A stretch of 64,000 bases of DNA from a virus: positions 8,341 through 72,340 of the IMG/VR virus record IMGVR_UViG_3300028024_000077; one strand, 5' to 3'. The stretch's first letter is position 1; each line of letters opens with the position of its first letter. The translations under genes and the position numbers were made by a program. The notes under the pieces are model-generated. The model did no database searches, was not told the origin of the DNA, and saw only the letters and a program-made list of their open reading frames with translations. Below are positions 6,764 to 56,287 of the stretch, piece after piece.

Positions 6764-7345
6764 ATGGCTTCTTTAAAGCAGATCAAGGCGCGGGTTAAAC
6801 TGGTCGATGGCTACTTCACCTTGGAGACTGTCGTCGAACAGCGGAAGCGCATCAATCTGTGCGACCAATGTGGTCTTGGAGCAAGATGCTCCATTCGATC
6901 AACGGTCGCGAAATTGAACAAGGAAGGCGTGGTAATTCTGCCGGTGAAAACCTGCAAGGAATTTCGGCATCGCATCCCCTTCCAAAGTGAGCGTGGGCTT
7001 ATCAAAGACCGGGTCAATACCTTCCGCATGGGTGCAGCCTGGTCTGGCCGGATCGATCCGGGCAACATCGTCCTCTTGACCAACAGCAAGACCGGCGCGG
7101 TGTATGGCGAGGCGGAAGTGATCGAGAAGCATGTCGGTTCTTTCGAAGAGATGGCGACGGCGCACGCGCTCAATAACCACATGCTGATAGATAGCGGGGA
7201 AGCCGATCCCGTGGAGGCAATGTATACGATCCTGCAAAAGTCCTATGGCCCGCTGTATGTGAGCCGCGACAAGCAGGTATCGGTCATTTACTGGAAGTGG
7301 CTGGGACATGGCGCGGAGCAAGAAGGAGAAGCCCTACAGCGTTGA
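6764..7345 (+). CDS. protein with ASCH/PUA-like C-terminal domain and N-terminal Cys cluster
   Basis: NTFRMG...PGNIVLL...YGEAEV resembles ASCH; CDQC..C...C in N-terminal part. Confidence 0.55.
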   Translation: MASLKQIKARVKLVDGYFTLETVVEQRKRINLCDQCGLGARCSIRSTVAKLNKEGVVILPVKTCKEFRHRIPFQSERGLIKDRVNTFRMGAAWSGRIDPGNIVLLTNSKTGAVYGEAEVIEKHVGSFEEMATAHALNNHMLIDSGEADPVEAMYTILQKSYGPLYVSRDKQVSVIYWKWLGHGAEQEGEALQR

Positions 7346-7706
7346 GCTGATCAAGAGGGGCAGCCGCAAATACGGCGAGATCAGGACATTCCCTGACGGG
7401 CGAACAATCTATGTCGCCTATCGCCGGATGAAAGACATCTTCCGCAACGGCCACAAAACCTACTCTGGCGCCTTCCGCACAAACGAGGCTTTCTGGGCAT
7501 TCGACCTAGACATTCTCCTCAAGATGCGCCACCGCAAAATCCAATTCATTGGCGTACTCGTGAGAGAGAACGACGACCTCTATCTGACGCGCATGGAATG
7601 GGCGTCAGATCCTTCCAAGACACGCCTGGTTCAACGCGGCGGCGTTCTCATGCGGAACGTCCCGTTTGAGCTATTCACCAAAAAACCCGGTGTCGTTCGT
7701 CTGTAA
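7308..7706 (+). CDS. hypothetical protein
   Basis: ATG ORF in operon, basic. Confidence 0.75.
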   Translation: MARSKKEKPYSVELIKRGSRKYGEIRTFPDGRTIYVAYRRMKDIFRNGHKTYSGAFRTNEAFWAFDLDILLKMRHRKIQFIGVLVRENDDLYLTRMEWASDPSKTRLVQRGGVLMRNVPFELFTKKPGVVRL

Positions 7707-7709
7707 AAA

Positions 7710-7727
7710 TAAGTAATCGCTTATTGT
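7710..7727. promoter_or_regulatory. 18-bp operator-like site
   Basis: TAAGTAA-TCGC-TTATTGT upstream of sbcD. Confidence 0.6.
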
Positions 7728-7777
7728 GCTCCCAGTGAGCAAGCGATACAGTCGAGCGACATGATAACGAGGGACAG

Positions 7778-8836
7778 ATGACTAAACCCTACGCAGTTGT
7801 TTCCGACCTGCACATGCACGCATGGTCGCAGTTCTCCAGCATCAACGCTGATGGCACAAATTCCCGATTGACGATCATCTTGGACGAGTTGGAGCGCGCC
7901 GGCGATTACCTGCTGGAGCAGGGCGGCGATCACATCTATGTGGCCGGCGATATGTTCCACGTTCGCGGCAAGATCGAGCCATCTGTCCTTAATCCGACCA
8001 AAGATCGCATCTTGAAGATGCGCAAGAAGGGCATCGAATTTGCCTTCATTCCTGGCAATCACGATCTGGAAGGTAAGGACGCATCGCGTCTTTCGAATGC
8101 CGTCACGGCATTGGAGAGTGATGGCGTCACCATCTGCCAGCAACCTTTGTATTTTGCGGGCAACAGGGTGTTCATGGTGCCTTGGCATTCGAACATCGAG
8201 GAGCTAAAGGCCGAAATCCTCAAGACCGATGCCCACTATCGCAACAGGCTTGATTTGATCATCCATGCGCCGCTGAACGGCGTCATCATGGGCATTCCCG
8301 ATCACGGCCTGGTCGCGGCGGAGGTCGCGGAGTGGGGTTTCAGGCGCGTCTTCTGCGGCCATTACCACAGTCACGTCGAGTTTCCCGGCGGTGTCTATTC
8401 GATCGGCGCGACGACACATCAAACATGGGGTGACGTTGGCTCGAAGGCCGGCTTCCTGGTCGTCTATGAAGATCGCGTCGATTTCCGCGCCAGCCATGCG
8501 CCGGCATTCGTGGATCTCGATCCGCTCGCTGACGAGCTGACCATCCAAAACACGGTCGATGGCAACTATGTCCGCGTGAAGCTCTCCTCGGCGACCGAAG
8601 CCGAGATCAAGGCGATCAAGGAAAGCGTCTTGGAAGCGGGAGCGCGCGGCGTTGTGGTGCATGCCGTCAAGGAAACGGTCTCCATCAAGCGCGAGGGCGT
8701 CGTGAAGGCCGGCGGCGTGTCGCTTAGCCAGTCCGTCAACGATTACGTCAAGGCGAAGTATGCCGGCGAGGACGAGAAGCCGCTGGCGGAACTTTGCGAG
8801 GATATTTTGACCGAGTCCAGGAGCGTCGAGGCATGA
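7778..8836 (+). CDS. sbcD: SbcD/Mre11 (gp47-like) metallophosphoesterase nuclease
   Basis: SDLH, AGDMFH, PGNHD, GHYH motifs. Confidence 0.93.
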   Translation: MTKPYAVVSDLHMHAWSQFSSINADGTNSRLTIILDELERAGDYLLEQGGDHIYVAGDMFHVRGKIEPSVLNPTKDRILKMRKKGIEFAFIPGNHDLEGKDASRLSNAVTALESDGVTICQQPLYFAGNRVFMVPWHSNIEELKAEILKTDAHYRNRLDLIIHAPLNGVIMGIPDHGLVAAEVAEWGFRRVFCGHYHSHVEFPGGVYSIGATTHQTWGDVGSKAGFLVVYEDRVDFRASHAPAFVDLDPLADELTIQNTVDGNYVRVKLSSATEAEIKAIKESVLEAGARGVVVHAVKETVSIKREGVVKAGGVSLSQSVNDYVKAKYAGEDEKPLAELCEDILTESRSVEA

Positions 8837-10770
8837 AGTTTCATCTGGCAATCGAGAACTTTCTGGCGATCAGCCTGGCTGAGATCGACCTTTCCGGTCG
8901 CGGGCTGCTGCTGATCCAGGGGGACAACCAGGACAATCCTAGCGCCGAGAGCAATGGCGCCGGCAAGTCGTCAGTCCCCGATGCGCTCTATTGGGCGCTC
9001 ACCGGCGAGACGGCGCGCGGTGTTTCTGGCGACGCAGTGATCAACCGGAGCGCCGGCAAGAACTGCCGCGTTGTGGTGAAAGTCACCGACGAAAAAGAGA
9101 CCTACGAGATCGCGCGCCACCGGAAGCACACCAAGGGCAAGAACAGCGTCACGGTCAAGCTATTGGATGCCGACGGCAGCGGGCGCGAGCACGATCTGAC
9201 TAAGGGCACGGACAAGCTAACCCAGGAGGTTATCTTCAAAATCCTTGGCTGCTCGGCTGAGGTCTTCAAGGCTGCCGTCTACTCTGGCCAGGAGCAGATG
9301 CCCGATCTGCCAGGTATGACCGACAAGCAGCTCAAGTTGCTGGTCGAGGAAGCGGCCGGCATCAATCAACTCCAGGCTGCCCACGACATTGCCAAGAAGC
9401 GGCTGGCGACGGCAGAGGCGGTTTTCTCCGACTGCCTGTCCAAGAAGAAAAACCTGGGAGACCGCCTTGAGGATGCTAAAAGCCATCACGAAGGCGCAAA
9501 AGCCCGAGCCGATGAATGGGATAAGGCGCAGGGCGGCCGGATCGCTGACGCAACTAACAGGGCCAAAGAGGCGGTCGATGCGGTCAAGCGGCTGGATACC
9601 GAGATCGCCGGTGACGATCTGGTAGCCAAAGAGGCGGAACGGGATCGCCTACAGGGGATCATCGACGGTGTGGCCGGCGAGCGCGTGAAGGAGGTTGAAC
9701 TTCGCACCACTCTGAGCCGGGCCCAGGCCGAAGAAGCAAAGGCGCAAGTCAACCTCACCAACGCGGCCGGGAAGCTGCGGACGGCAGTCGATAAGCTGAA
9801 AGGCATCGACGCCCAGATCGGCAAAGCCTGTGGCGAGTGTGGCCGTAATCATGACGAGTCCACCCTTGGGGCGGCCAAGTGCGCGCTCAAGGAGACCGCC
9901 AAAAAGGAGAAGACCTCCTACGATATGGCGGTCGAGGCCCGAGCTGCTGCTGGAAACACCGTTTTAACGAGCGCTAAGAGCTTGGAGACGTTCACGGCGT
10001 CAATGACTGACATCAGCGAGGCGACGGCGTCCCTGAGCGCTATAAACGCGTCTATCGTCACTTCCAGCGCACTACGCGACAAGCGCAAGACGGCAGCGAC
10101 GACGGCCAAGAGCCTGGTCGAGCGTCAGAGGGAGATCAAGGCGGAGATAAATCCGCATTTGGCGACCATCACCGATGCCTTGGGCAAGATCGACTACCTC
10201 AAAGTGCAGATCGATAATGCCGATGAGGAGATTGCCGAACAGGCTGCGGCAGTCGAGCTGCGGAAGAAGGCCGTTCAGGTCTATGGCCCGGCCGGCGTGC
10301 GCGCCCATATCCTCGATACTGTGACGCCATTCCTCAATGACCGGACGGCGCACTATCTCGGCGCCCTGTCTGACGGCAACTGCCATGCAATTTGGCAGAC
10401 CCTGACGCCGACGGCAAAGGGTGAGCTGCGGGAGAAATTCTCCATCGATGTGGCCGATGACCAGGGAGCGGAGAGCTTCGCCGGTTTGTCGGGCGGTGAG
10501 AAGCGCAAGGTGAGGTTGGCTACCGCCCTCGCTTTGCAAGACCTGGTTGGAAGTCGGGCGGCCAAGCCGATCGACCTCTGGATCGGGGATGAAATTGACG
10601 ACGCGCTGGACAACGCCGGCCTTGAGCGCCTGATGAATATTCTGGAGCTGAAGGCGCGCGAGCGGGGAACGGTGTTGGTAATCTCTCATGCCGATCTGAA
10701 GGATTGGATCAGAGAGACGCTGACGGTCGTCAAGAAGGGTGGCGTTAGCACAGTGGTTGAAGGTGATTAA
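8833..10770 (+). CDS. sbcC: SbcC/Rad50 (gp46-like) SMC-family ATPase
   Basis: NGAGKSS Walker A, coiled coil with CGEC zinc hook, LSGGE signature, IGDEIDDALD; start reset to ATG 8833. Confidence 0.95.
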   Translation: MKFHLAIENFLAISLAEIDLSGRGLLLIQGDNQDNPSAESNGAGKSSVPDALYWALTGETARGVSGDAVINRSAGKNCRVVVKVTDEKETYEIARHRKHTKGKNSVTVKLLDADGSGREHDLTKGTDKLTQEVIFKILGCSAEVFKAAVYSGQEQMPDLPGMTDKQLKLLVEEAAGINQLQAAHDIAKKRLATAEAVFSDCLSKKKNLGDRLEDAKSHHEGAKARADEWDKAQGGRIADATNRAKEAVDAVKRLDTEIAGDDLVAKEAERDRLQGIIDGVAGERVKEVELRTTLSRAQAEEAKAQVNLTNAAGKLRTAVDKLKGIDAQIGKACGECGRNHDESTLGAAKCALKETAKKEKTSYDMAVEARAAAGNTVLTSAKSLETFTASMTDISEATASLSAINASIVTSSALRDKRKTAATTAKSLVERQREIKAEINPHLATITDALGKIDYLKVQIDNADEEIAEQAAAVELRKKAVQVYGPAGVRAHILDTVTPFLNDRTAHYLGALSDGNCHAIWQTLTPTAKGELREKFSIDVADDQGAESFAGLSGGEKRKVRLATALALQDLVGSRAAKPIDLWIGDEIDDALDNAGLERLMNILELKARERGTVLVISHADLKDWIRETLTVVKKGGVSTVVEGD

Positions 10771-11186
10771 TGGCAGTTACAGAAGAACAAAAGCGAGAGC
10801 GGGAGCAGATCGCCGCCCAAATCAGCAAGGCGGCAGAAGTCGGCGTGTATCACTTCAGGCTGCTCCAGCCGACGACATTGACGGTCAAACAGGGCCATCA
10901 GTTCAAGAAAAAGCCCTTCATTGGCGAAGAGATTTTCGCCGTCAAGACGGCCTATGTCGGGAAGCGGGGCGGCATTATCGTGGTATTCGAGCCATATACC
11001 GCGAGTGAGTACGCCTCGATCGAGATCCCCATTATGGATTGCGAGACGCTTCTGGAGGGCTGGCCGAACTGGCGCGCCGGTGTCCTGAAAGAGTTCGAAG
11101 GCGACGGCATCCACATTCCGTTGAAGCCGGTGGCGCCGACACCGCCTGAGGAACTCATGACCGATCCAAATTTCGGGAGTTGGTGA
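10770..11186 (+). CDS. hypothetical protein ending in FGSW
   Basis: Coupled to sbcC by TAATG. Confidence 0.75.
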   Translation: MAVTEEQKREREQIAAQISKAAEVGVYHFRLLQPTTLTVKQGHQFKKKPFIGEEIFAVKTAYVGKRGGIIVVFEPYTASEYASIEIPIMDCETLLEGWPNWRAGVLKEFEGDGIHIPLKPVAPTPPEELMTDPNFGSW

Positions 11187-11783
11187 ATGGCTCAAATTCG
11201 CGCATTAACGATCGACCCCTCACTCCGAAATTGGGGAATGGGGCGTGTCCTGATCGATATCGACACCCGCCAGGTCACGGTCGAGGAGCTATTCCTCAAC
11301 AAGACCGAGGATGACAGCGGCAAGGTCGTTCGCAAGAACAGCGACGACCTGCGCCGGGCCAAGGCGCTCTATGACGAAATGGTCCGCTTCAGCCAAGGCT
11401 GCTCGATTGCCTTCGCTGAAGTCCCAGTCGGCTCACAGAGCGCTCGCGCCATGGCGTCTTACGGTGTCTGTATTGGCGTTCTGGCCGGCTGTCCGCTGCC
11501 GCTGATCCAGGTGACCCCGACAGAGGTCAAGTTGGCCGGCTTCGGCTACAAGCACGCCACCAAGGAAGAGATGATCCAGTGGGCAACCGAGAAGCACCCG
11601 GAAGCCAATTGGCTCATGAAGAAGCGGGGAGGGGCGCTGACCCCCACCAATGACAACGAGCACCTGGCGGACGCAATTGGCGCCGTCTACGCGGGGATCA
11701 AGACTGACCAGTTCCGCCAGGCAGTTGCCATGCTCAGATCCATGGGGGTGGCTGCGGCAATCCCTGGAAATCCTTCTATTTGA
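11187..11783 (+). CDS. ruvC: RuvC-like Holliday junction resolvase
   Basis: IDPSLRNWG, FAEVP, VTPTEVK..G..HATKEEM, EHLADA. Confidence 0.85.
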   Translation: MAQIRALTIDPSLRNWGMGRVLIDIDTRQVTVEELFLNKTEDDSGKVVRKNSDDLRRAKALYDEMVRFSQGCSIAFAEVPVGSQSARAMASYGVCIGVLAGCPLPLIQVTPTEVKLAGFGYKHATKEEMIQWATEKHPEANWLMKKRGGALTPTNDNEHLADAIGAVYAGIKTDQFRQAVAMLRSMGVAAAIPGNPSI

Positions 11784-11792
11784 CGTTAATAG

Positions 11793-11810
11793 TAAGTCAT
11801 TGCTTACTTC
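11793..11810. promoter_or_regulatory. 18-bp operator-like site
   Basis: TAAGTCA-TTGC-TTACTTC between TTGACG and TATAAT, upstream of RNR. Confidence 0.75.
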
Positions 11811-11860
11811 ATTATAATTAGTTCCCCTTGCGCTCAGCAGGACGGAATTAGGAGAACACC

Positions 11861-14284
11861 ATGTTTTACGACACGCATGTTCAGGCGCGTGCATATGCGC
11901 CTGGCATTGGGCAAGCTGTTGCCGATCGAACCATCAACCGGACTGTCACCGAGCAGTATCCGGCCATCAAGCAGGTCTATGCGACCATCCCGCGCGACGA
12001 TCAGACTTCCCTGGACAGTCAGATCGAAGCCTGGTGTAAGTCCAACAACTATGTCTTTGGCGGCGAATACCGCGTGCAGCACGGCGACGACACGTCGGTC
12101 AATGTCGCCATCGATGTGACCGGCGAGCTGCGCCGCGAAACCTGGGCGGACGTGGCGGAACGCGTCTCGCTCGGCAACTCGCTGCTGACCAAGATCCGGC
12201 AGGACGAGGAGCGCCAGGCGCTTCGCTACCATCTCCGGCGCGGCAGCATCATCATGTCCGGCCGCCATCTCCAGCACGGCGATGAAACCCAGCCCACTCG
12301 CAACCAGGAGGTCTTTACCAACTGCGCGACAAGTGCGGCAAGCTTCCTGACCTTTTATCTGCTGCTGAATGGCGCTGGCGTCGGTCGCTCCTATGACGAC
12401 GACATGATGCTGGTGGACTGGTTCTATATGCCGGTCCTGGAATGCGTCATCGATGACCAGCACGCCGACGCCCAAAGCGGCGAGATCCAGGCGCTGACCC
12501 GCACCCAAGCTGAGCATCTCTATGCCGGCCGCGCCCGCGAGGTCTTCGAAGTGCCCGATAGCCGGGAAGGTTGGGCGGCTGCCGTCGAGAAGATCGAGAC
12601 GATGACGGCAGCAGAGAAGTATCGCGGCTGGACGCTGATCTTGGACTTCAGCAAGGTTCGCCCGCGCGGTGCGCCCATCAAGGGCATGCAAGACCGCCCA
12701 GCTTCCGGCCCTGGACCGCTGATGAAGGCTATCCAGCAGATCGCCCGCATCCGCGACAGCAGCATGGACCCCTGGCGCTCGACCATGTACGTGGATCACT
12801 ATCTTGCCGAATGCGTGCTTGTCGGCGGCGCCCGCCGTGCGGCCCGTATGTCCACCAAGCACTGGAGTGATGAAGGCATTTTCGACTTCATCTCGGTGAA
12901 GCGGGGCGGCTTCCTGTGGTCGTCGAACAACTCGGTGACCACCGATGCCGAGTTCCGCAGCTATATCCTCGATCCGAGCATCAAGACGAAGGAAGCCGAA
13001 TGGGCTCGCCAGGTGCTTGAAGCGATCTGCCAGGCTGCCTATCACGATCGGACTGGTGAGCCGGGCCTGATCAATCAGGACATGCTTCGCGAGAACAACG
13101 TGAAGCTGGAGGATTACGCGATCGGCAACTTCGTCGGTTCGCAGCGCTTCCAGCTCTCCGGCGACGGCAAGAGCCTGATGGGCAAGCTTGCCGAGGCGTT
13201 CCTCGCCAAGAAGCACAAGATGATCACCAACCCGTGCGGCGAGATCACGCTGATCATGTTGGGCGGCTATTGTCTGATCGGCGACAACGCGCCGTATCAT
13301 GCCAAGCCCGACTGGATGCCGACGGCGCTCACTCAGCCGACTTGGGAGATCATCTGGGACACGGAGGCCGAGGACAGCTTCCGGGTCATCACGCGCGCCC
13401 TGATCCGCACGAACTTGATGGATTGCCTCTATCGCAAGGAGGTCAATCGCACCAACCGTATCGGCGTCAGTCTCACCGGCCTGCATGAATACGCCTATGC
13501 CCGCTTCGGCTACGGCTTCCGCGATCTGATCGATGAGGAGAAATCCAAGCCGTTCTGGCTGACCATGTCGCGGTTTGCCCGCGCCGTGCAGGAAGAGGGC
13601 ATCAAATATTCGGCAGAGCTTGGCGTCAATGCGCCGCATACCGACCGGACGATCAAGCCGGCTGGCACAACCAGTAAGCTGTTCAGCCTCTCGGAAGGCG
13701 CGCACTTGCCGGCGCGGCGCGAATATCTCCGCTGGGTGCAGTTCCGCTATGACGATCCGCTGATCGCCAAATACGAGGCGCTGGGCTATCCGGTCAAGCG
13801 GCTCAAGACCTACAGCGGAACGGTCATCGTCGGCTTCCCGACGCAGCCCGAGATCTGCAAGCTCGGCATGGGCGACAAGCTGGTTCTGGCTTCTGAGGCG
13901 ACGCCGGAGAAGCAATTCCAGTGGCTGCGCCTGATCGAGAAATACTGGATCAGGGGCGTGCAGGCTGACGGCGTCACGCCGTTGACCGAGGACACCGGCA
14001 ATCAGGTCTCCTACACCCTGAAATATAAGCCGACCGAGATCTCCTACGAGGCTTTCCGCGATAGCATCGTCCGCAACCAGTTCACGGTGAAGGTCTGCTC
14101 GGTCCTTCCCGAGCTGGATGAGGTGGAGTCGGCATACGAGTATCTGCCGGAGCAGGTCGTGACCAAGCACGATTACGAGATGATCGTGAATGCCATCAAG
14201 CAGGACGATAGCGTGAGGGAGGACGTGGATTTCAGCCACGTAGACTGCGCGACCGGCGCCTGTCCGGTGGACTTCAATAAGTAA
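11861..14284 (+). CDS. nrdJ: class II (adenosylcobalamin-dependent) ribonucleotide reductase
   Basis: ETWADVAERV, SGRHL, FTNC, GGARRAA, EPG, TNPCGEI, TIKPAGT, C-terminal CATGACP; no beta-subunit gene nearby. Confidence 0.9.
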   Translation: MFYDTHVQARAYAPGIGQAVADRTINRTVTEQYPAIKQVYATIPRDDQTSLDSQIEAWCKSNNYVFGGEYRVQHGDDTSVNVAIDVTGELRRETWADVAERVSLGNSLLTKIRQDEERQALRYHLRRGSIIMSGRHLQHGDETQPTRNQEVFTNCATSAASFLTFYLLLNGAGVGRSYDDDMMLVDWFYMPVLECVIDDQHADAQSGEIQALTRTQAEHLYAGRAREVFEVPDSREGWAAAVEKIETMTAAEKYRGWTLILDFSKVRPRGAPIKGMQDRPASGPGPLMKAIQQIARIRDSSMDPWRSTMYVDHYLAECVLVGGARRAARMSTKHWSDEGIFDFISVKRGGFLWSSNNSVTTDAEFRSYILDPSIKTKEAEWARQVLEAICQAAYHDRTGEPGLINQDMLRENNVKLEDYAIGNFVGSQRFQLSGDGKSLMGKLAEAFLAKKHKMITNPCGEITLIMLGGYCLIGDNAPYHAKPDWMPTALTQPTWEIIWDTEAEDSFRVITRALIRTNLMDCLYRKEVNRTNRIGVSLTGLHEYAYARFGYGFRDLIDEEKSKPFWLTMSRFARAVQEEGIKYSAELGVNAPHTDRTIKPAGTTSKLFSLSEGAHLPARREYLRWVQFRYDDPLIAKYEALGYPVKRLKTYSGTVIVGFPTQPEICKLGMGDKLVLASEATPEKQFQWLRLIEKYWIRGVQADGVTPLTEDTGNQVSYTLKYKPTEISYEAFRDSIVRNQFTVKVCSVLPELDEVESAYEYLPEQVVTKHDYEMIVNAIKQDDSVREDVDFSHVDCATGACPVDFNK

Positions 14285-48208: not shown

Positions 48209-49726
48209 TCAATGCGCTATTTTCTTCAAACCCAGCGCATCAAAATTAAAATCGCTGCCAATTGGCAGGACGTTTTCGGCAAAGCCCGGCGTGCCGTCGA
48301 TAATGGCAAAGCGCGTGAGGGCGTGGTCGCGGAGATGGTTGTTGAAGGGATCGGTGAAATCGATCACCAGGCAGACGTTCGGCGGGATCACCTTGGCGCG
48401 CAGCCCGCGCCCGACCCGCTGCCGGAGCTGGATCTCCGCCTTGCCGCCGCCGGCGAGGATCACCATACCGACCGCTGGCACGTCCACGCCTACGTCAAGA
48501 ATGGTTGAGCCGATCAAGACCTGGATATCGCCGCGCTTGAGCTTCGCCAGCGTTGCCGCGCGCTTGTCCTGACTGGATTCCCCAAAGATGTATTCGACGC
48601 GGACGCCAGCCGAGGCGATCATCTGCTTGAGGATGGCGCCGTGTTCCTTTCGGGAGACCAGGATCATGACCGGCAGGCCGTATTTGGTCGCGCGCACCGC
48701 CTCGATCGCGATCTGCTGGTTGCGCCAGGTGTTTTTGACGATGCCGAGATCATAGGCACGCTGATAGGATGAGGTGCGCCGGACGCCGGTGGGCGCCTCC
48801 GGCTGCTTGATCCGCTTGAAGTAGGGGGTAGCCAAGATCCCGCGCCCAATCAGCATCTCTTCCGAGATCTCGATGCCGACTGGGCCGAAGGCCGCCATCA
48901 GGCGCATATTGCGCTCTTCGTCGGCGGACATGAATGGCGTCGCAGTCAGCGCCAGGCGGTAATGCGCGTTCCGGCAGTGGCGGGCGATCTCGTAATAGCT
49001 GCTGCCGCCGGCCTCGTGCGCTTCCTCGCCGATCAGGAATTCCATGTATTCGAGAAGCTTGATGGTCTTGGCGCGCACGATGCGCTGGCGCTCGGCTTGC
49101 TCCGCGTTCATGTCGTCGGTGGGTTCGGCCTGGCGAGCAACCAGAGTCTGCACCATGCCGACATTGATGCCGCGCCGGGGTTCCCAGACGCTGTCGCCCA
49201 GCACGCCGACGTTCAGCCCCATCCCCTCGAACGCTTCTTTCATCTGATACATGAGAACGGAGCGCGTCGTGAGAAATAGCGTGGGGCGCTTGATGCGCGC
49301 ATAGGCGAGCTTCGCTATCCGGCTCTTGCCGCCGCCGGTCGCGATGCGGGCGATCATGCTGCGGTGTTTCAGCAGCTTGCGGACGGTCTCCGGCTGGTAG
49401 TCATAGCGCGGATCTTCTTCGAAGGGATCGACGATGGGGTTTTCGGGCCCGAGAGCTTCCGGCGCCTTGGGGCGGACAAGCTGCACGTTGTAGCCGCGCC
49501 GCTTGAGGTCGCTATAGACCAGGTGGACGAAACCCATGGGGAAGCTGCCCGACCGATAGTCGAAGAAGCTCGATCGACCATCCCAGCTATGGGACTTGTA
49601 GGCGTCCGAATACTCAGCGCCCTCGACCTTGTAGGAGAGCAACTGAGAGACCTTCAGCTTGGTGTCGCGGTCGGCATTCAGCAGCTTTGCGTGAATGGCG
49701 TTATGCGCGATCTGTAAAACGCTCAA
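48209..49726 (-). CDS. superfamily 2 helicase (UvsW/ResIII-like)
   Basis: YDYQ, ATGGGKS, EEAH, LTATP, GVDVP, QRVGRGLR. Confidence 0.93.
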   Translation of the reverse strand: MSVLQIAHNAIHAKLLNADRDTKLKVSQLLSYKVEGAEYSDAYKSHSWDGRSSFFDYRSGSFPMGFVHLVYSDLKRRGYNVQLVRPKAPEALGPENPIVDPFEEDPRYDYQPETVRKLLKHRSMIARIATGGGKSRIAKLAYARIKRPTLFLTTRSVLMYQMKEAFEGMGLNVGVLGDSVWEPRRGINVGMVQTLVARQAEPTDDMNAEQAERQRIVRAKTIKLLEYMEFLIGEEAHEAGGSSYYEIARHCRNAHYRLALTATPFMSADEERNMRLMAAFGPVGIEISEEMLIGRGILATPYFKRIKQPEAPTGVRRTSSYQRAYDLGIVKNTWRNQQIAIEAVRATKYGLPVMILVSRKEHGAILKQMIASAGVRVEYIFGESSQDKRAATLAKLKRGDIQVLIGSTILDVGVDVPAVGMVILAGGGKAEIQLRQRVGRGLRAKVIPPNVCLVIDFTDPFNNHLRDHALTRFAIIDGTPGFAENVLPIGSDFNFDALGLKKIAH

Positions 49727-49762
49727 AATATCTCCTTGAGAAAGCGCCTTTTCATGGTAGGA

Positions 49763-49821
49763 TAAGTCACCATTTACTTATTAAACGGCGCGATTTAAGA
49801 TTATAAGTCAGCGCTTACTTT
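49763..49821. promoter_or_regulatory. pair of 18-bp operator-like sites in divergent gap
   Basis: TAAGTCA-CCAT-TTACTTA (49763-49780) and TAAGTCA-GCGC-TTACTTT (49804-49821). Confidence 0.85.
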
Positions 49822-49849: not shown

Positions 49850-50494
49850 ATGAAAAGCGCAGAAATTGACCCGCGACGTTTGAAGCCAAATCGCTGGAAC
49901 ACGAACGTCGTCAGCCCAGACAACGAGAAGAAGCTGGACGAAAGCCTCCGGCGCCTCGGCGTCTTCAAGCCCGTCCTCGTGCGGACACTACCCAATGATG
50001 ATCTGGAGATCATCGGCGGCGCGCACCGCGTCGAAAGCGCGATCCGCATCGGGCTCAAATCCATCCCAGTCGTCAACCTCGGCGAGATCGACGACCACAA
50101 GGCCAAGGAGATCGGCCTGGTCGATAATGGCCGCTACGGCGCCGATGACGTGGTTAGCCTGGCCGAGCTGATGAGCGAGCTGGGCAGTGCCGCCGACCTC
50201 GCCAGCTTCCTGCCCTATACCGACGCCGAGATGACAGCGATCTTTTCCTCGACCGACATCGACCTCGACATGCTCGATGGCAGCGATGATGACGAGGCCC
50301 CGCTGGCGCCCATTGAGACCGCGCTGAAGACCCACACCATCATGCGCTTCAAAGTCCCGCTGGGCGACGCCGAGCGCCTCCAGGAAGCCATTGAGAGCGT
50401 CATGAAACGCCAGGGCTTCACCGACAGCGACGATCTGACCAATGCCGGCGACGCGCTCGTCTGGCTCTTTAATGAATACCTGAAAGGCGAATGA
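49850..50494 (+). CDS. ParB/Srx-like N-terminal domain protein
   Basis: LKPNRWNTN, KPVLVR, IIGGAHRVE. Confidence 0.88.
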   Translation: MKSAEIDPRRLKPNRWNTNVVSPDNEKKLDESLRRLGVFKPVLVRTLPNDDLEIIGGAHRVESAIRIGLKSIPVVNLGEIDDHKAKEIGLVDNGRYGADDVVSLAELMSELGSAADLASFLPYTDAEMTAIFSSTDIDLDMLDGSDDDEAPLAPIETALKTHTIMRFKVPLGDAERLQEAIESVMKRQGFTDSDDLTNAGDALVWLFNEYLKGE

Positions 50495-50495
50495 C

Positions 50496-50654
50496 ATGCG
50501 CGGCTATCGCGACTGTAAGACCTGCGCTCACCAGCGCACCGCCAAGTGCCTTCCCTGCACAAGCGGCCAGAACTTCGAACCCAAGGAGATCGAGGAGCTG
50601 GATTTCGAGAACGACACCCTGAATTTCGAGGACTTCGATGGCGACCAAGACTAA
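50496..50654 (+). CDS. 52-aa CxxC-x7-CxxC microprotein (not in track)
   Basis: MRGYRDCKTCAHQRTAKCLPCTSGQNFEPKEIEELDF...; fills gap between ParB-like genes. Confidence 0.7.
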   Translation: MRGYRDCKTCAHQRTAKCLPCTSGQNFEPKEIEELDFENDTLNFEDFDGDQD

Positions 50655-51339
50655 GAGCGGCGCACGCGACGTGGTGGAGCTGGCCGGCGAGCTGCGGCCG
50701 GACTATCCGCTTGAGAAGCTGATCCCCTACGAGAACAACACCAAGATCCACGCCGAAGAGCAGGTCGAGCTGTTGGCGAAGCTGATCCTGGAGAATGGCT
50801 TCACCGATCCGATCCTGGTCAACAAGAAGGGCGTGATCATCGCCGGCCATGGACGGCGTCTGGCCATGCTGAAGCTCGGCTACAAGACGATCCCGGCCTT
50901 CGTCGCCACCAACTTGACGCCGACACAGGAGCGGGCTCTCCGCATCTCCCACAACAAGGCCAGCTCGTCCAAATACGACACCGAGAAAATGGCCTTTGAG
51001 ATCCGAGGCTTGAGCGACGATGGCTACGACATTTCGGGCCTTGGCCTGGAAGGTAAGGAAATCGAGTTCATGAGCGGCGATCTCGACGTGATAGACGAGA
51101 GCGCCTTTGCCGATGACATCGTCGATGCGGTCGAGCGTCAGAACGAGGAGAGCCAGGAGAATATCGACCGCGTCGATGCTGGCGAGATCCCGGTTTGGCG
51201 TGCCCTCGGCTTCAAAACGATCGCCAAGCACCGCGAGAAGCTGGTCAACGAGTTCATACGCCGCATCGAGAACGAGACCGGCAAGCAGGGCGGCGAAGCC
51301 TTGGCGCATTTCATCAGCCAGGTCACGGAGACAGTATGA
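50638..51339 (+). CDS. ParB/Srx-like N-terminal domain protein
   Basis: LIPYENN..IH, GFTDPILV, IIAGHGRR. Confidence 0.88.
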   Translation: MATKTKSGARDVVELAGELRPDYPLEKLIPYENNTKIHAEEQVELLAKLILENGFTDPILVNKKGVIIAGHGRRLAMLKLGYKTIPAFVATNLTPTQERALRISHNKASSSKYDTEKMAFEIRGLSDDGYDISGLGLEGKEIEFMSGDLDVIDESAFADDIVDAVERQNEESQENIDRVDAGEIPVWRALGFKTIAKHREKLVNEFIRRIENETGKQGGEALAHFISQVTETV

Positions 51340-51647
51340 GCGACGAAAAGAAGATCGTCCGGCTCGTGCCGGTCGCCGAGCGCCTAGAACAAGAGAAGGA
51401 AGAGATCGCCGGCGACGACCAGAAGGAGCTGATCGCTTACCTAGGGGAGCTGCTGGAGCGGGCCCGCGCCGGCGAGTTCGTCGGCATGGTCGCTATTGTG
51501 GATACGAAAGACAATGGCTTCTTCAAAATTAGCACCCAATCGATGCTGGATAATGCCAGCCAGACGATCGGCGAGTTGGAGATTGTGAAGACCCAATTCA
51601 TCCAAGCGATCAGTGATTTGGCGGTCGAAGAGGGGATTGACCAGTGA
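51336..51647 (+). CDS. hypothetical acidic protein
   Basis: ATGA overlap. Confidence 0.7.
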   Translation: MSDEKKIVRLVPVAERLEQEKEEIAGDDQKELIAYLGELLERARAGEFVGMVAIVDTKDNGFFKISTQSMLDNASQTIGELEIVKTQFIQAISDLAVEEGIDQ

Positions 51648-52285
51648 AATACCTGATCAGCAAGTCCTTTTCGACCACCGTCGAGCGCTCGCCGCGCGTG
51701 ATCGAGGTCGCTGAAGCCTATGGCCTGGGTCTCAGCGATAAGGAATTCACCATCTACGACAACTTCGAGATCGAGGTGAAGCAAGGCGACGTGGTCTACA
51801 TCACCGGCCAGAGCGGCTCGGGCAAGTCGCTGCTGCTGCGCGAGCTGGCCGCCCAGATGAAGGATGACGGCCTGAAGGTGGCCGACATCGAGGGCATCCA
51901 GTTCGACGACCGGCCGCTGATCGACCAGGTTGGCAAGAACATGACCGAGGCCAGTAACCTACTGAGCCAAGCCGGCGTGAATGACGCCTATTTGCAGATC
52001 CGCCGACCCAAGGAGCTGTCCGACGGCCAGCGCTACCGGCTACGCCTGGCCAAGCTGATCGAAAGCGGCGCCGAGGTGTGGGTCGCGGACGAATTCGGGG
52101 CGATCCTGGATCGCAACACCGCCAAGGTGGTCGCCTTCAACATGCAAAAGATGGCGCGCAAGTTGGGCGCGACCCTGATCGTCGCCACCACTCACACCGA
52201 CATGGAAGCCGAGCTTGGAGCCGACATCATGATCACCAAGCGCTTCAAAGAGCGGATCGACGTAAAGCGGGTAGAGAACGAATGA
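51644..52285 (+). CDS. soluble ABC-type ATPase
   Basis: GQSGSGKS, LSDGQ, VADEF, ATTH; no permease gene. Confidence 0.9.
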   Translation: MKYLISKSFSTTVERSPRVIEVAEAYGLGLSDKEFTIYDNFEIEVKQGDVVYITGQSGSGKSLLLRELAAQMKDDGLKVADIEGIQFDDRPLIDQVGKNMTEASNLLSQAGVNDAYLQIRRPKELSDGQRYRLRLAKLIESGAEVWVADEFGAILDRNTAKVVAFNMQKMARKLGATLIVATTHTDMEAELGADIMITKRFKERIDVKRVENE

Positions 52286-53226
52286 CGCGATTAGAGCGTG
52301 CTGCAAGCCCGTCGCACGATTTGCCGTCTCTGACAACGGGTTTAGAGCTGGAGACGGTCGTAGAGCGTCGGGAGCGTGCTCGGGGCGTCTTCCCGATGCT
52401 TTCTGAGATGATCGTCGAGCGCGGGACGGCTGACGACTGGGAATTGCTCCACGAGCTGCACTATAAGTCGGAAGGCGGACTGTTTGGGCCGCATTACTGG
52501 CGCTGCTCACTCCGGGGCGAGACGATCGGTGTCATGGTCATCTCCATGCCGCGCGGACTCCTGAAAGACCGCCATAACGTGTTCCCCAAACTCGCACCTG
52601 GCGGCGACACGAAGATGACCAACACCTACCGCTATGTTTTCGTGAACAAGAACTTCCGCCTGGTCTCGCGCCTGGTGGTGGATACGATGTTCCGGGGCAT
52701 CGGCGTCGCCTACCGGATGCAGAATCTCGCCGCGCGCATGGAGGGCGCCAGGTATATCGAGATCCAGTCGTCGATGAGCAAATACAACCTCTTCGCCGAG
52801 AAGGCCGGCTTCCGGTTTGCTAAGCCCCGACGGGCCAACAAATACGAGCTGGGCCTAGAGATGTTCCGCCGGCACTTCCGGTCCTACCCCGGCGATCATC
52901 AGGCGATCATGCAGGAGATCAAGGCGCTCGATCCGAAGATCCGCGAAAAGAAGATCGAGGAGCTGAAGGCGTTCTATTACCAGCACTCCGCCATGGAGCG
53001 CACGGGGTCGAACGGCCAGAAGGGGACAGAGCGGGTTGAAGCTCTCTCCGACGCTGCCCTGATCCGCAACCTGATCCAGATGTGCTTTTCCAGCCCGCTG
53101 TACGGCGTCTACACCAATCCCGACCACGGACGCCAGATCCCCGACCGGCTGCCGCTCACGGCCTTCGACAACCAGCCTGTGAACGCGCCCTTAGACCTGG
53201 AGAAGATCAAATGGCCTACGGTCTGA
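52282..53226 (+). CDS. GNAT-like acyltransferase
   Basis: LHELHY, ISRLVVDTMFRGIGVA acetyl-CoA motif A, MSKYNLFAEKAGF; start reset to 52282. Confidence 0.75.
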   Translation: MTRLERAASPSHDLPSLTTGLELETVVERRERARGVFPMLSEMIVERGTADDWELLHELHYKSEGGLFGPHYWRCSLRGETIGVMVISMPRGLLKDRHNVFPKLAPGGDTKMTNTYRYVFVNKNFRLVSRLVVDTMFRGIGVAYRMQNLAARMEGARYIEIQSSMSKYNLFAEKAGFRFAKPRRANKYELGLEMFRRHFRSYPGDHQAIMQEIKALDPKIREKKIEELKAFYYQHSAMERTGSNGQKGTERVEALSDAALIRNLIQMCFSSPLYGVYTNPDHGRQIPDRLPLTAFDNQPVNAPLDLEKIKWPTV

Positions 53227-53492
53227 CCGAGAAGCAGCGGATGATCCTGGAGACCATTCACCGGGGCGGGGAGGGCGCGGGCCAGATCCGCCTGGAGACG
53301 CTGCTGAAAAAACTGCCCTACCAGACCTCTAAGGACAGCATTCAGTTCTCGCTCCGGGCGCTGGATAGGGCCAAGTTCACCCGCAGCACCTATGGGACGT
53401 TCGCCGGCCGCCGGCATCGGTTCATTTCACTGACCGAGGACGGCTACCGGGTGATCAAGTTCCTCAAGCAAGACTGGGGAGTGGAGCTGTAG
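53211..53492 (+). CDS. winged-helix DNA-binding protein
   Basis: LTEKQRMILE, SIQFSLRAL, ISLTEDG. Confidence 0.7.
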   Translation: MAYGLTEKQRMILETIHRGGEGAGQIRLETLLKKLPYQTSKDSIQFSLRALDRAKFTRSTYGTFAGRRHRFISLTEDGYRVIKFLKQDWGVEL

Positions 53493-53498
53493 AAGCGC

Positions 53499-53672
53499 GC
53501 CGTGGGAGTTTTGGGAGCCCATGCCGCGCCCGCCCGAAAGTTTTTTAAAGAAATAAGCTTCTACTTACTATAATAGGTTTAAAACCAAGCCAAAGAGTTG
53601 TTTTTATATATTATAACACTTTAACATAAAACTTTCGGGCGGGCGGATTTGGCAACTACCAACTCCCACGGC
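53499..53672. repeat. nested inverted repeats around AT-rich core
   Basis: 12-bp IR 53499-53510/53661-53672 and 18-bp IR 53527-53544/53628-53645. Confidence 0.85.
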
Positions 53673-53720
53673 CCCCACTGGGAAACCTCACCGGCGCGGC
53701 GATCCATCGCCATCTGAAAA

Positions 53721-53843: not shown

Positions 53844-54455
53844 ATGTCCGAGACCAAGAACAAGAAGATGACGCCGGCAGAATACGAGCAGGCAAAGCAG
53901 CTTCGCGTCACCGGACAGAAGACCATCAAAGACATCGCCGCGCAATTTGGCGTTTCCGAGCAGGCGCTACGCAAGCGCTTCAGCCGGGATGGTGTCGAGG
54001 TGCTGGAAGAGGCGGTGGAAGAGCATGTCGCCGGGGTCACCGACCTGGCCGCCCAAAAGCTGGCGGAGTCGATTGCCCTTCACCAGAAGCGCGTTCAGGA
54101 CACCAAGGAGATCCACTATAAGCTGGCCGAACAGTTCACGGCCCTTGTCGCGCGCAAGACCAAAACGGCGATCGAAGACAAGATATCCCTAGCCACCCTC
54201 ATCCCCGAATTCAAGGCGATCAAGCTCGCTCTCGAAATCAGCCAAACGGCCAAACAGATCCGCTACGACGTGCTGGAGATCAACAACGGCGACGTTGATC
54301 CCGAGGATATGCCGGAACTGCCGATTGTGGAGATTACCGACGAAGAAGCTCACGAGATCGGCCGCAGCAAGGGCCTGAACTTCGAAGAAGACGACGAGTT
54401 GGTCGCCGGCGCGGAGTCAGACACTGAAGATGCCGATAGCGACCCCGCCGATTAG
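53844..54455 (+). CDS. probable terminase small subunit
   Basis: N-terminal HTH (TIKDIAAQFGVSEQALRKR), helical core, directly before terL. Confidence 0.75.
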   Translation: MSETKNKKMTPAEYEQAKQLRVTGQKTIKDIAAQFGVSEQALRKRFSRDGVEVLEEAVEEHVAGVTDLAAQKLAESIALHQKRVQDTKEIHYKLAEQFTALVARKTKTAIEDKISLATLIPEFKAIKLALEISQTAKQIRYDVLEINNGDVDPEDMPELPIVEITDEEAHEIGRSKGLNFEEDDELVAGAESDTEDADSDPAD

Positions 54456-55713
54456 TAAGCCTCGGCCGCGCGCCGCCGCGCTCACCCTTCACCGGGGCCA
54501 GGCCGAAGTCTTCCGATCTCAAGCTCGTATCAAAGTCGTCGTCGCCGGCCGCCGCTGGGGCAAGACCCAGCTCGCCAAGATCGCGATTATAAGGGCAGCT
54601 CGCATCCCGAAGCGCCTTATCTGGTATGTCGCGCCAACCTATGGCATGGCCAAGGGCATCATGTGGCATGAGCTGCTGGAGAGCATTCCCCGGAAGTGGC
54701 TGGCCGGCAAGCCGAACGAGACCGCGCTCTGCATCAAGCTGCGGAACGGGACGCGCATCGAGCTGAAAGGCGCCGACAAGCCGGACACTTTGCGCGGCGT
54801 GGGTCTGCATTATCTGGTTCTCGACGAATTCCAGGACATCAAGGAAGACACTTGGACGAAGATCCTGCGGCCGACGCTAGCCTCCACCGGCGGCCACGCG
54901 CTGATCATCGGCACGCCCAAAGCCTTCAACATGCTCCACAAGCTCTGGGCTAAGGGCCAGAAGGAATACAATCGTATGTACGGGCGCTGGCATAGCTGGC
55001 AGTTCCCGACCATTACCAGCCCCTTCATCCCGAAGAGCGAGATCGAGGAGGCCCGGCGCGACATGGACGCCAGGTCTTTCAAGCAGGAGTTTGAGGCCAG
55101 CTTCGAGACCATGAGCGGGCGGGTCTATTATGCCTTCGACCGGAAGATCCATGTCGGCAAATACCCGCTCAATCCCGACCTGCCGGTGATGGTGGGGCAG
55201 GATTTCAACATTGACCCGATGTCGAGCATTCTGCTGCAACGCCAGGACAACGGCGAGCTATGGGCGGTGGGCGAGCTTGTGCTGTTCGGCTCGAATGTCG
55301 CCGAGGTGTCGGAAAAGCTGGAGCAGCGTCTGTGGCGCATCAATCAGCGCTTCGTCACCATCTACCCCGATCCGGCAGGCGCCGGCCGCCAGCATGCCCG
55401 AGGCGAAAGCTCGCTCGATATCTTCCGGGAAAAGGGCTTCGTGGACATTCGCTATCGCCGCAAGGCGCCGGCGATCGCCGACCGCGTCAACTGCGTCAAC
55501 CGGCTTCTTATGAGTGCCGACGGCTCCATCAAGCTGAAGATCGATGAGAGCTGCCGCTACCTGGTCGATAGCTTGGAGCAGACCATCTACAAGCCGGGCA
55601 CGCCCGAGATCGACAAGACGAATGGCAAGGAGCACTTCACCGACGCTCTCGGCTATCCGATCGAATACGAGTTCCCGCTCAAGAAATTCAAGATCAAGGG
55701 CGTCTCTATTTAA
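54430..55713 (+). CDS. terL: terminase large subunit
   Basis: AGRRWGKT, LRG..LHYLVLDEF, IGTPK, GQDFN, EHFTDALGY. Confidence 0.96.
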   Translation: MPIATPPISKPRPRAAALTLHRGQAEVFRSQARIKVVVAGRRWGKTQLAKIAIIRAARIPKRLIWYVAPTYGMAKGIMWHELLESIPRKWLAGKPNETALCIKLRNGTRIELKGADKPDTLRGVGLHYLVLDEFQDIKEDTWTKILRPTLASTGGHALIIGTPKAFNMLHKLWAKGQKEYNRMYGRWHSWQFPTITSPFIPKSEIEEARRDMDARSFKQEFEASFETMSGRVYYAFDRKIHVGKYPLNPDLPVMVGQDFNIDPMSSILLQRQDNGELWAVGELVLFGSNVAEVSEKLEQRLWRINQRFVTIYPDPAGAGRQHARGESSLDIFREKGFVDIRYRRKAPAIADRVNCVNRLLMSADGSIKLKIDESCRYLVDSLEQTIYKPGTPEIDKTNGKEHFTDALGYPIEYEFPLKKFKIKGVSI

Positions 55714-56003: not shown

Positions 56004-56287
56004 TGGCATTCATCGATCTCGACGCACACCGGATCGGTGAGCAGCATTTGCAGCCGCAGGAAAAAGAGATCCTCGGGCTGCTGCTGCGAAACGAGGGCAG
56101 GGTGGTCACACACCACGAGATCCGCAATCTTTTGTGGGGACATCTCGGCACAAACGGCCCGGCCGATCCGCAAATGACCATCCTTGTTCGGATGGTCTAT
56201 ATCCGAAAAAAGCTCGCTGACACGCCCTATCGCGTCGTCAACAAGCGGCGCGTGGGCTATATGCTTTTACGGATGGAAAATAAGTAA
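56003..56287 (+). CDS. OmpR/PhoB-type winged-helix domain without receiver domain
   Basis: LQPQE..IL.LL..N.GRVV....I...LWG, YIRKKL, VGY. Confidence 0.75.
   Translation: MAFIDLDAHRIGEQHLQPQEKEILGLLLRNEGRVVTHHEIRNLLWGHLGTNGPADPQMTILVRMVYIRKKLADTPYRVVNKRRVGYMLLRMENK

Follow-up and report, generated by a model that had tools for sequence, protein, structure and literature searches.

A seven-gene module (g1 to g7, window positions 49850-53492), located just ahead of the terminase genes, was identified in the phage record IMGVR_UViG_3300028024_000077 (103,480 bp, estimated to be 92% complete), the window being the whole stretch of 64,000 nt analysed here, which corresponds to record positions 8,341 to 72,340. 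The module brings together two ParB-like proteins (g1 and g3), an ABC ATPase (g5) and a GNAT-fold protein (g6), and the chances are judged to be even that these form an ATP-driven, ParB-loaded acyltransferase machine which acts on the phage DNA alongside the packaging genes. A more specific version of this reading is held more tentatively, according to which the split ABC-GNAT pair, using ParB loaders and ATP, would install an undescribed acyl modification (of the acetyl or aminoacyl type) on DNA bases and would act with the terminase; the small proteins g2 and g4 would then be previously unnoticed subunits of an ancient machinery, common to proteobacterial phage-plasmids, archaeal tailed viruses and a chromosomal cassette of Planctomycetota. 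The original prediction that such ABC-GNAT systems acylate DNA reportedly stems from the Aravind group (Iyer and co-workers, NAR, 2013), as stated in the group's paper of 2021. This later paper (Iyer et al. 2021, PMC7824862) cites the earlier computational prediction, in which the acylation of a DNA base is ascribed to a GNAT working with an ABC ATPase, so that the prediction invoked by an earlier, sequence-only reading of the window is at least partly on record. The same reading knew of no biochemical confirmation, and in the literature searched neither a confirmation nor any experimental test of the ABC-GNAT/ParB module was found. The module is an instance of the predicted system, to which the present analysis adds the conservation of g2 and g4, the paralogy of the two ParB-like proteins with their putatively ribbon-helix-helix (RHH)-like C-termini, and the link to the small (TerS) and large (TerL) terminase subunits in Planctomycetota.

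The ATPase, the GNAT-fold protein and their ParB-like partners

The g5 protein matches ABC_tran (PF00005) with an E-value of 6.7e-13 and 49.8 bits, the cut-off being 25, and its translation holds a Walker A motif (GQSGSGKS), an ABC signature (LSDGQ), a Walker B motif (VWVADE) and an H-loop (TTHT), i.e., all ABC catalytic motifs, which lets the protein appear catalytically intact. That this ATPase comes without a permease had been remarked from the sequence, and indeed no membrane permease was found beside g5, whose neighbours are g4 and the GNAT gene g6; among the fusions examined, the related ATPases are joined to a GNAT and not to a membrane domain. With the ATPase half of a Bathyarchaeota ABC-GNAT fusion g5 shares 48.6% identity, and BLASTP against archaeal ABC-GNAT fusions returned E-values of 1.7e-66 for g5 and 1.2e-20 for g6.

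For g6, no match was obtained in Pfam or NCBIfam, and a PDB sequence search with its profile gave nothing meaningful. It falls into phrog_886 (E 5e-121), a family labelled as 'ABC transporter ATP-binding subunit', yet the AlphaFold2 model of g6, built from 31 homologues (pLDDT 87), revealed a GNAT fold without a P-loop. Judged from this model, g6 is a GNAT-fold protein and the transporter label of phrog_886 is wrong. Structural alignment with VIA-align gave Z-scores of 10-11.5 over 120-150 aligned residues with many GNATs, the best being those to protein N-acetyltransferases such as NatA, RimI and Ard1, while Foldseek returned 18 matches at E <= 0.001 which, among the matches listed, are all GNAT acyltransferases. 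The best ten of these include TmcA (2zpa, at the top), NAT10 (among the top five) and Mu Mom, whereby the E-values of all GNAT matches lie within one order of magnitude. To Mu Mom (PDB 8bv8) the model aligns with a Z-score of 10.3 over 150 residues at 9% identity, and a relationship between g6 and Mom was not detected at the sequence level.

Motif A of GNATs (consensus Q/R-x-x-G-x-G/A) is the pyrophosphate-binding loop for coenzyme A (CoA). In g6 it reads R138-G139-x-G141. Among 26 sequences reaching down to 19% identity, R138 and G141 do not vary and G139 hardly varies, and in 31 close relatives the motif is invariant as a whole. H60, Y61, R97, R130 and E160 are likewise invariant in the distant relatives, with N122 being nearly so, and a helical insert of about residues 185-270 precedes the last strands of this basic protein (isoelectric point, pI, of 9.5). 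Taken together, the GNAT fold of g6 with its invariant motif A and the complete set of ABC motifs in g5 argue for the catalytic competence of the pair.

A search of 1.84 billion representatives placed the g6 homologues into 281 clusters, the distant ones among which are mostly proteins of 450-500 aa with an ABC domain (ABC_tran) at the N-terminus and a g6-like domain at the C-terminus, g6 aligning to about residues 200-380. Distant homologues match Acetyltransf_1, _7 or _10 at E 3e-4 to 5e-3, and a single one (P0164, 21.5 bits versus 20.7) lies above its Pfam cut-off. As g5 corresponds by homology to the one half of such fusions and g6 to the other, they are a split form of the COG2401-type ABC-GNAT fusion, i.e., one putative enzyme distributed over two overlapping genes. 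Other ABC-GNAT fusions were found to be joined to a family-B DNA polymerase (in two separate clusters), to Gins51, to TFIIB repeats or to a KAP NTPase. In a distant homologue of 847 aa (P0212), an intein with a LAGLIDADG homing endonuclease splits the ABC domain of the ABC-GNAT protein.

Turning to the ParB-like proteins, g1 exceeds the Pfam cut-off for ParB_N (PF02195, 26.3 bits) with 41.1 bits (E 1.9e-10) and g3 stays under it with 22.9 bits; they were assigned to phrog_723 (E 7.5e-60) and phrog_930 (E 1.8e-56), respectively, and the N-domain of g3 also matches phrog_498 (E 1.8e-35), a type which is fused to phage DNA methyltransferases. Comparison of the two families by hhalign, using alignments from related loci, gave a probability of 99.2% over 195 columns, by which g1 and g3 are full-length paralogues. 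Their common layout comprises a ParB/Srx N-domain, a helical middle part, an acidic linker and a C-terminal beta-alpha-alpha unit. The g1 protein holds the motifs GGAHR and DNGRYG, which in its family (GGxHR and DNxRYG) are invariant or nearly so, as are GHGRR and DN in the family of g3; g3 itself reads AGHGRR.

The sequence-only reading had seen no evident helix-turn-helix (HTH) in these proteins. For the sequence matches this stands, as they are limited to the N-domain and end at about residue 97, but the structural view goes further: the g1 model aligns to Spo0J over residues 21-143, and the C-termini of both proteins appear RHH-like. Next to Spo0J, the N-terminal domain structure of pNOB8 ParB (Z 12.8, residues 1-137), PadC (Z 11.7), KorB with CTPγS (Z 11.1) and sulfiredoxin were matched by the g1 model. 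Residues 157-214 of g1 gave weak matches (Z 3.3-4.2) to MazE9, ArtA, NikR, AmrZ, CdbA and Arc, and the C-terminus of g3 a weak match to RHH_4 (E 0.084), scores which suggest that the C-termini may be RHH-like units for dimerisation and DNA binding. As to ParA, no AAA_31 match was found in the whole record, the completeness of 92% leaving a slight possibility of a missed gene, and the sole CbiA match is sub-threshold and falls onto the Walker A motif of g5; g1 and g3 are the only ParB_N genes of the record. Because the record is without ParA, as had already been noticed from the window, a partition role for g1 and g3 is unlikely. A DNA context is instead supported by the fusions to polymerase B, Gins51 and TFIIB together with the DNA-methyltransferase-type ParB domain, and also by the ParB/Srx, RHH-like and winged-helix partners and the basic pI of g6 and g7 (10.1 for the latter).

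Terminase genes beside the module in phages, archaea and Planctomycetota

Among isolated phages, the relatives (31 matching records) are SSU5-like siphoviruses and phage-plasmids, including Salmonella SSU5, E. coli Cyrano, Klebsiella phage-plasmids, Rhizobium RHEph10 and B1VFA, Pseudomonas nickie as well as Stenotrophomonas and Xanthomonas phages. In 80 IMG/VR loci, the order of a helicase gene on the opposite strand, ParB1 (g1), ParB2 (g3), ABC ATPase, GNAT, TerS-like gene and TerL is held wherever the flanks reach, and the UvsW-like helicase has kept its position in every related locus whose flank extends so far. The TerS-like protein of the window matches phrog_867 ('DNA binding domain') at E 5.7e-29, TerS families at E 3.5e-4 to 1.1e-3 and Pfam Phage_terminase at E 0.026, its identity as TerS following mainly from its position. 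The TerL of the window directly matches TerL proteins of the archaeal and Planctomycetota loci described below (E 9e-16 and 1.5e-19).

The distant clade of the GNAT comprises 530 loci in a species-level genome collection, mainly from Planctomycetota, Bathyarchaeia, Thaumarchaeota and Caldarchaeales. The common operon of the Planctomycetota consists of a tandem sigma-4 HTH gene, ABC, GNAT and ParB genes and then a terminase small subunit, whereby the ParB is of the g1 type (phrog_723, E 3.5e-19) and the TerS belongs to phrog_2538 (E 1.5e-6, three members). A homology of the sigma-4 HTH or TerS-like protein to the TerS-like protein or g7 of the window was considered and rejected, as hhalign gave short HTH-level matches only (53%, 25%, 10%). 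TerL was found near the cassette in at least four of five genomes tested, the contig identity in the fifth not being established, and the TerL proteins are 64-76% identical between genomes of different orders. The cassettes (L085, L107, L110, L111 and L112, around positions 6800-14200) are chromosomal and separated from TerL by some kb with cellular genes in between; their flanks hold cellular genes (PfkB, radical SAM, HAD, RpiB, glycosidase, sulfatase) and further a DNA methyltransferase, a cI-like repressor and a primosomal-type protein. Neither the capsid family PF05065 nor the portal family PF04860 was found beside the cassette. It might represent the remnant of a prophage, a satellite or an element that has been domesticated.

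In archaeal proviruses, tail-tube and gp10-like genes are followed by TerL and directly thereafter by an ABC-GNAT fusion, with cellular SerRS and ribosomal protein S3Ae genes farther out. A second set of 80 viral contigs (IMG/VR, L167-L246) encodes the fused form, and in at least 43 of them its gene comes right after TerL. ParB, ABC ATPase, GNAT and terminase were found together in SSU5-like phages, archaeal proviruses and Planctomycetota cassettes, and this synteny in independent lineages supports the packaging link which had been proposed from the window alone.

Two further observations were made on these loci. Of the contigs with the fused gene, 19/80 end inside the gene or at most 300 nt after it and 27/80 within 1 kb, whereas almost none end close upstream; such ends might reflect a physical genome end, a pac site or a recurrent assembly break. 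Moreover, an archaeal TerL-like protein (L094:6007-7320) matches Terminase_6N (E 2.5e-13) and, secondarily, PF05127, the NAT10/TmcA helicase family (E 3.3e-7), the latter probably being due to general P-loop similarity.

Gene layout, small proteins and operators

The coordinates of the module and its surroundings are compiled in Table 1. The junctions from g1 to g7 are +1, -17, -4, -4, -4 and -16 nt, hence the seven genes are translationally coupled, just as the sequence-only reading had described them. Between g7 and the TerS-like gene lies a gap of 351 nt, while the end of the TerS-like gene and the start of TerL overlap by 26 nt. The slot between the ABC ATPase and the GNAT is empty in the window, but in many relatives (L004-L083) it contains small, unrelated genes over a length of 100-2100 nt; these inserts represent at least eight different clusters of open reading frames (ORFs), some of them HAD-like by eye, and the slot is a hotspot for the insertion of accessory genes inside an otherwise conserved module.

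Table 1. Features of the module and of its surroundings (window positions).
Feature	Position	Strand	Remarks
UvsW-like superfamily 2 (SF2) helicase	48209-49726	-	divergent from the module; keeps its position in related loci
Two operator copies	49762-49781, 49803-49820		ATAAGT-N8-ACTT, 41 nt start to start
g1, ParB-like protein 1	49850-50494	+	214 aa; ParB_N match, phrog_723
g2, zinc-ribbon-like microprotein	50496-50654	+	52 aa; conserved CxxC pairs
g3, ParB-like protein 2	50638-51339	+	233 aa; phrog_930
g4, acidic protein	51336-51647	+	103 aa; recurs in related loci
g5, soluble minimal ABC ATPase	51644-52285	+	213 aa, GTG start; ABC_tran
g6, GNAT-fold acyltransferase (predicted)	52282-53226	+	314 aa; phrog_886, model fold
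g7, basic winged-helix protein	53211-53492	+	93 aa; HTH_12, phrog_900
Nested perfect inverted repeats	53499-53672		12 nt at 53499/53661, 18 nt at 53527/53628
TerS-like HTH protein	53844-54455	+	203 aa; phrog_867
Terminase large subunit TerL	54430-55713	+	427 aa; phrog_2

The small CxxC protein g2, first noticed in the sequence-only reading, was substantiated by comparison. Its four cysteines (C7-x2-C10 and C18-x2-C21) are followed by GQNFE and an acidic tail, and an ORF with the pattern C..C-x(4-20)-C..C occupies the slot between ParB1 and ParB2 in 44 of 70 related loci. In an alignment of 26 such sequences, the members being only 17-36% identical to g2, all four cysteines are invariant and GE.F is near-invariant, with an acidic tail thereafter. 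The gene is missing from loci with a short gap between the ParB genes, and in Cyrano these genes abut and leave no room for it. Judging from this pattern, g2 is a real gene that encodes a conserved, zinc-ribbon-like accessory subunit. For g4, jackhmmer identified relatives in 53 loci, where they invariably stand between the genes for ParB2 and the ATPase, and in the ESM Atlas it retrieved unnamed phage clusters only; neither g2 nor g4 matches Pfam or NCBIfam. The g7 protein matches the HTH_12 winged helix (E 5.5e-5), and most related loci have an ORF of about 85-110 aa after the GNAT gene; 28 of these ORFs align with g7 and show a winged-helix-like pattern. The near-uniqueness of g2, g4 and g7 that tblastn suggested at E 1e-3 was thus dismissed as a sensitivity artefact, since the motif, jackhmmer and positional analyses found relatives.

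The sequence-only reading had placed the operon under a double operator. The stretch that separates g1 from the divergent helicase gene does contain two copies, of which the first overlaps a sigma-70-like promoter match (49736-49763), but the motif is not specific to this operon: the palindrome ATAAGTMA-N4-TKACTTAT yielded 40 strand-matches (at most one mismatch) across the window, 0.67 being expected, and is therefore phage-wide. The matches range from 2546 to 62847, with copies at e.g. 2546, 15045, 20546, 27585, 29792, 41262, 41804, 47383, 49762, 49803, 53720, 56280 and 62828. Those placed against genes are all intergenic; the copy at 56280 overlaps a TATAAT box, the one at 53720 precedes the TerS-like gene and others precede later genes. 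Taken together, the copies resemble the operator network of a global regulator of the phage. Between g7 and the TerS-like gene, nested inverted repeats enclose an AT-rich core of 83 bp, the corresponding gap being about 100-130 nt in related loci as compared to 351 nt here, and this region is a candidate for a pac/cos site, an origin or a late promoter.

Mechanism, related systems and competing explanations

According to the favoured reading, ParB1 and ParB2 would dimerise, perhaps as a heterodimer, via their RHH-like C-termini and would bind the phage DNA, thereby giving the catalytic unit access to double-stranded DNA (dsDNA) as the ParB of phage thymine dioxygenases does. Here, g5 and g6 would work as one enzyme, whereby ATP binding and hydrolysis by the ABC dimer may drive clamping, scanning or base exposure, and the GNAT would move an acyl group onto the exocyclic amine of a DNA base. 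The remaining proteins g2, g4 and g7 would be lineage-specific accessory or specificity subunits. With the operon being under the phage-wide operator and located just before TerS and TerL, modified DNA would be packaged and would be protected in the next host, so that the module may serve the escape from restriction. Acyl-CoA is probably the donor, being favoured because g6 keeps the R-G-x-G of motif A; as Mom uses Gly-tRNA, the GNAT fold alone cannot decide this point, and an aminoacyl-tRNA is possible as well. In a search of the 103-kb record, three families of DNA methyltransferases gave no match and no thymidylate-synthase-type enzyme was recognised, which was counted in favour of DNA modification by the module.

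Several known systems resemble the module in part. The annotation of phage Cyrano names the g6 orthologue after the COG2401 / 'MK0520'-type ABC ATPase-acetyltransferase, to both halves of which g5 and g6 are homologous and for which the same acylation of DNA bases has been predicted; unlike these fusions, the window holds two overlapping genes which are embedded among two ParB paralogues, a zinc-ribbon protein, g4 and a winged-helix protein. We know of no experimentally established activity in the COG2401-type family, hence membership in it assigns no function. TmcA and NAT10 are ATPase-coupled GNATs that acetylate N4 of cytidine in RNA. They share with the module the combination of an NTPase module and a GNAT for the exocyclic amine of a nucleobase (predicted here), but their ATPase is helicase-like and their substrate is RNA, whereas the ATPase of the module is of the ABC type and its partners are DNA-binding. 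In the 7-deazaguanine DNA modification by DpdA/DpdB a ParB-like ATPase takes part, and both there and in the ParB_N-methyltransferases of phrog_498 a ParB/Srx protein partners a DNA-modifying enzyme as suggested here; the catalytic chemistry differs, and no TGT-like enzyme was noticed among the module genes.

Mom, a late-expressed protein which works on dsDNA, shields DNA from restriction. Mu Mom was reported to be a GNAT-fold adenine N6 carbamoylmethylase with a helical insert, which works on dsDNA with Gly-tRNA and not acyl-CoA as donor (PMC13219725). The analogy to Mom that the sequence-only reading had drawn therefore holds for the fold, as g6 matches Mom and likewise carries a helical insertion late in the fold, but needs revision as to the donor; moreover, Mom works by itself, with neither an ATPase nor a ParB, and the CoA-type R-G-x-G is retained in g6. 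For the ParB-like proteins, the closest precedent comes from a phage ParB without an obvious DNA-binding domain, which was reported to activate its cognate thymine dioxygenase (5mYOX) on dsDNA and in which a nucleotide-binding domain at the N-terminus is combined with a dimerisation domain at the C-terminus (PNAS 2026, PMC13229309). Architecture and adaptor logic of this ParB match g1 and g3. The partner in the module is however an ABC-GNAT pair and not a dioxygenase dependent on Fe and 2-oxoglutarate (Fe/2OG), two ParB paralogues are present, and the module is known from sequence. The report on DLP3, a phage with restriction-resistant DNA and a ParB-like nuclease, was considered as a further precedent and set aside, since the gene is differently placed, the paper makes no mention of an ABC protein and DLP3 is not among the phage records that match g6.

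A number of points weigh against DNA acylation by the module. No experimental paper was found that reports a modified base in any phage carrying it, and no reader, eraser or restriction partner of the module was seen. For GNATs, proteins, small molecules and RNA are substrates no less than DNA, and the fold ranking does not favour the nucleic-acid GNATs, as g6 reaches equal or higher Z-scores with GNATs for proteins and small molecules. The position of the g6 insert was likened to that of Mom on the basis of secondary-structure order, and the RHH assignment of the ParB C-termini comes from Z-scores of 3.3-4.2 and a Pfam E-value of 0.084. Unrelated genes often separate ATPase and GNAT in related loci, hence strict translational coupling of the two is not required. 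Finally, a role in packaging itself would account equally well for the close association with TerS and TerL.

This last point leads to the alternative that survives best, although it is considered unlikely: the GNAT would acylate protein, for example lysines of TerS, TerL, the portal, ParB or a host nucleoid protein, and thereby regulate the packaging complex, with the ParB, RHH and winged-helix parts placing the enzyme at pac/cos and the ABC ATPase serving as a switch for assembly or timing. The co-occurrence with TerS and TerL in three lineages is consistent with such a role, as are the nested inverted repeat with its AT-rich core directly after the module, the 19 of 80 distant viral contigs that end at or near the ABC-GNAT gene, which would fit a genome end or pac, and the fact that NatA, RimI and Ard1 gave the best Z-scores with g6. 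However, the fusions to DNA polymerase B and GINS indicate DNA metabolism in general and not the terminase alone, the ParB domain is of a type which also occurs in DNA methyltransferase fusions, and an ATPase is unusual for protein GNATs but a hallmark of the nucleic-acid GNATs TmcA and NAT10. Their logic of ATPase plus GNAT is identical to that of the module, which brings up an RNA-directed enzyme that would use ATP to acetylate tRNA or other host or phage RNA, its adjacency to the terminase reflecting late timing only. TmcA as top and NAT10 as top-five Foldseek match and the secondary PF05127 match of the archaeal TerL-like neighbour point in this direction; yet the ranking is uninformative given the narrow spread of E-values, no RNA-binding domain was seen and the conserved partners are all DNA-binding or DNA-handling, so that this explanation is regarded as improbable. 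Most improbable of all is plasmid-prophage partition or ABC transport as the database labels have it ('ParB-like partition protein' and 'ABC transporter ATP-binding protein' in PHROG and GenBank), for although SSU5-like phages are phage-plasmids and B1VFA was reported with parA, parB and repC (PMC12509600), both were rejected given that the 103-kb record holds neither a ParA nor a permease beside the module, that phrog_886 is a GNAT fold without a P-loop and that archaeal proviruses and viral contigs have the same genes next to their terminase. What probability remains falls to other small-molecule or non-catalytic roles.

Overall, the interpretation put forward in the sequence-only reading is partly supported, i.e., in the anatomy of the module and its packaging link, and has to be given up with respect to the specificity of the operator and revised as to the analogy to Mom. 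If the favoured reading of an ATP-driven, ParB-loaded acyltransferase holds true, a new natural chemistry of DNA modification would be at hand, in which a GNAT acylates bases driven by ATP, and hundreds of phages and phage-plasmids would possess it, among them tractable ones from E. coli, Salmonella, Klebsiella, Pseudomonas and Rhizobium. Furthermore, it would provide the second experimental case of ParB serving as an adaptor for DNA-modifying enzymes and would explain why these genes are mislabelled as transporters and partition proteins in the databases. As the tie to the terminase reaches from bacteria to archaea, a coupling between DNA modification and packaging would be directly testable in SSU5 or Cyrano.

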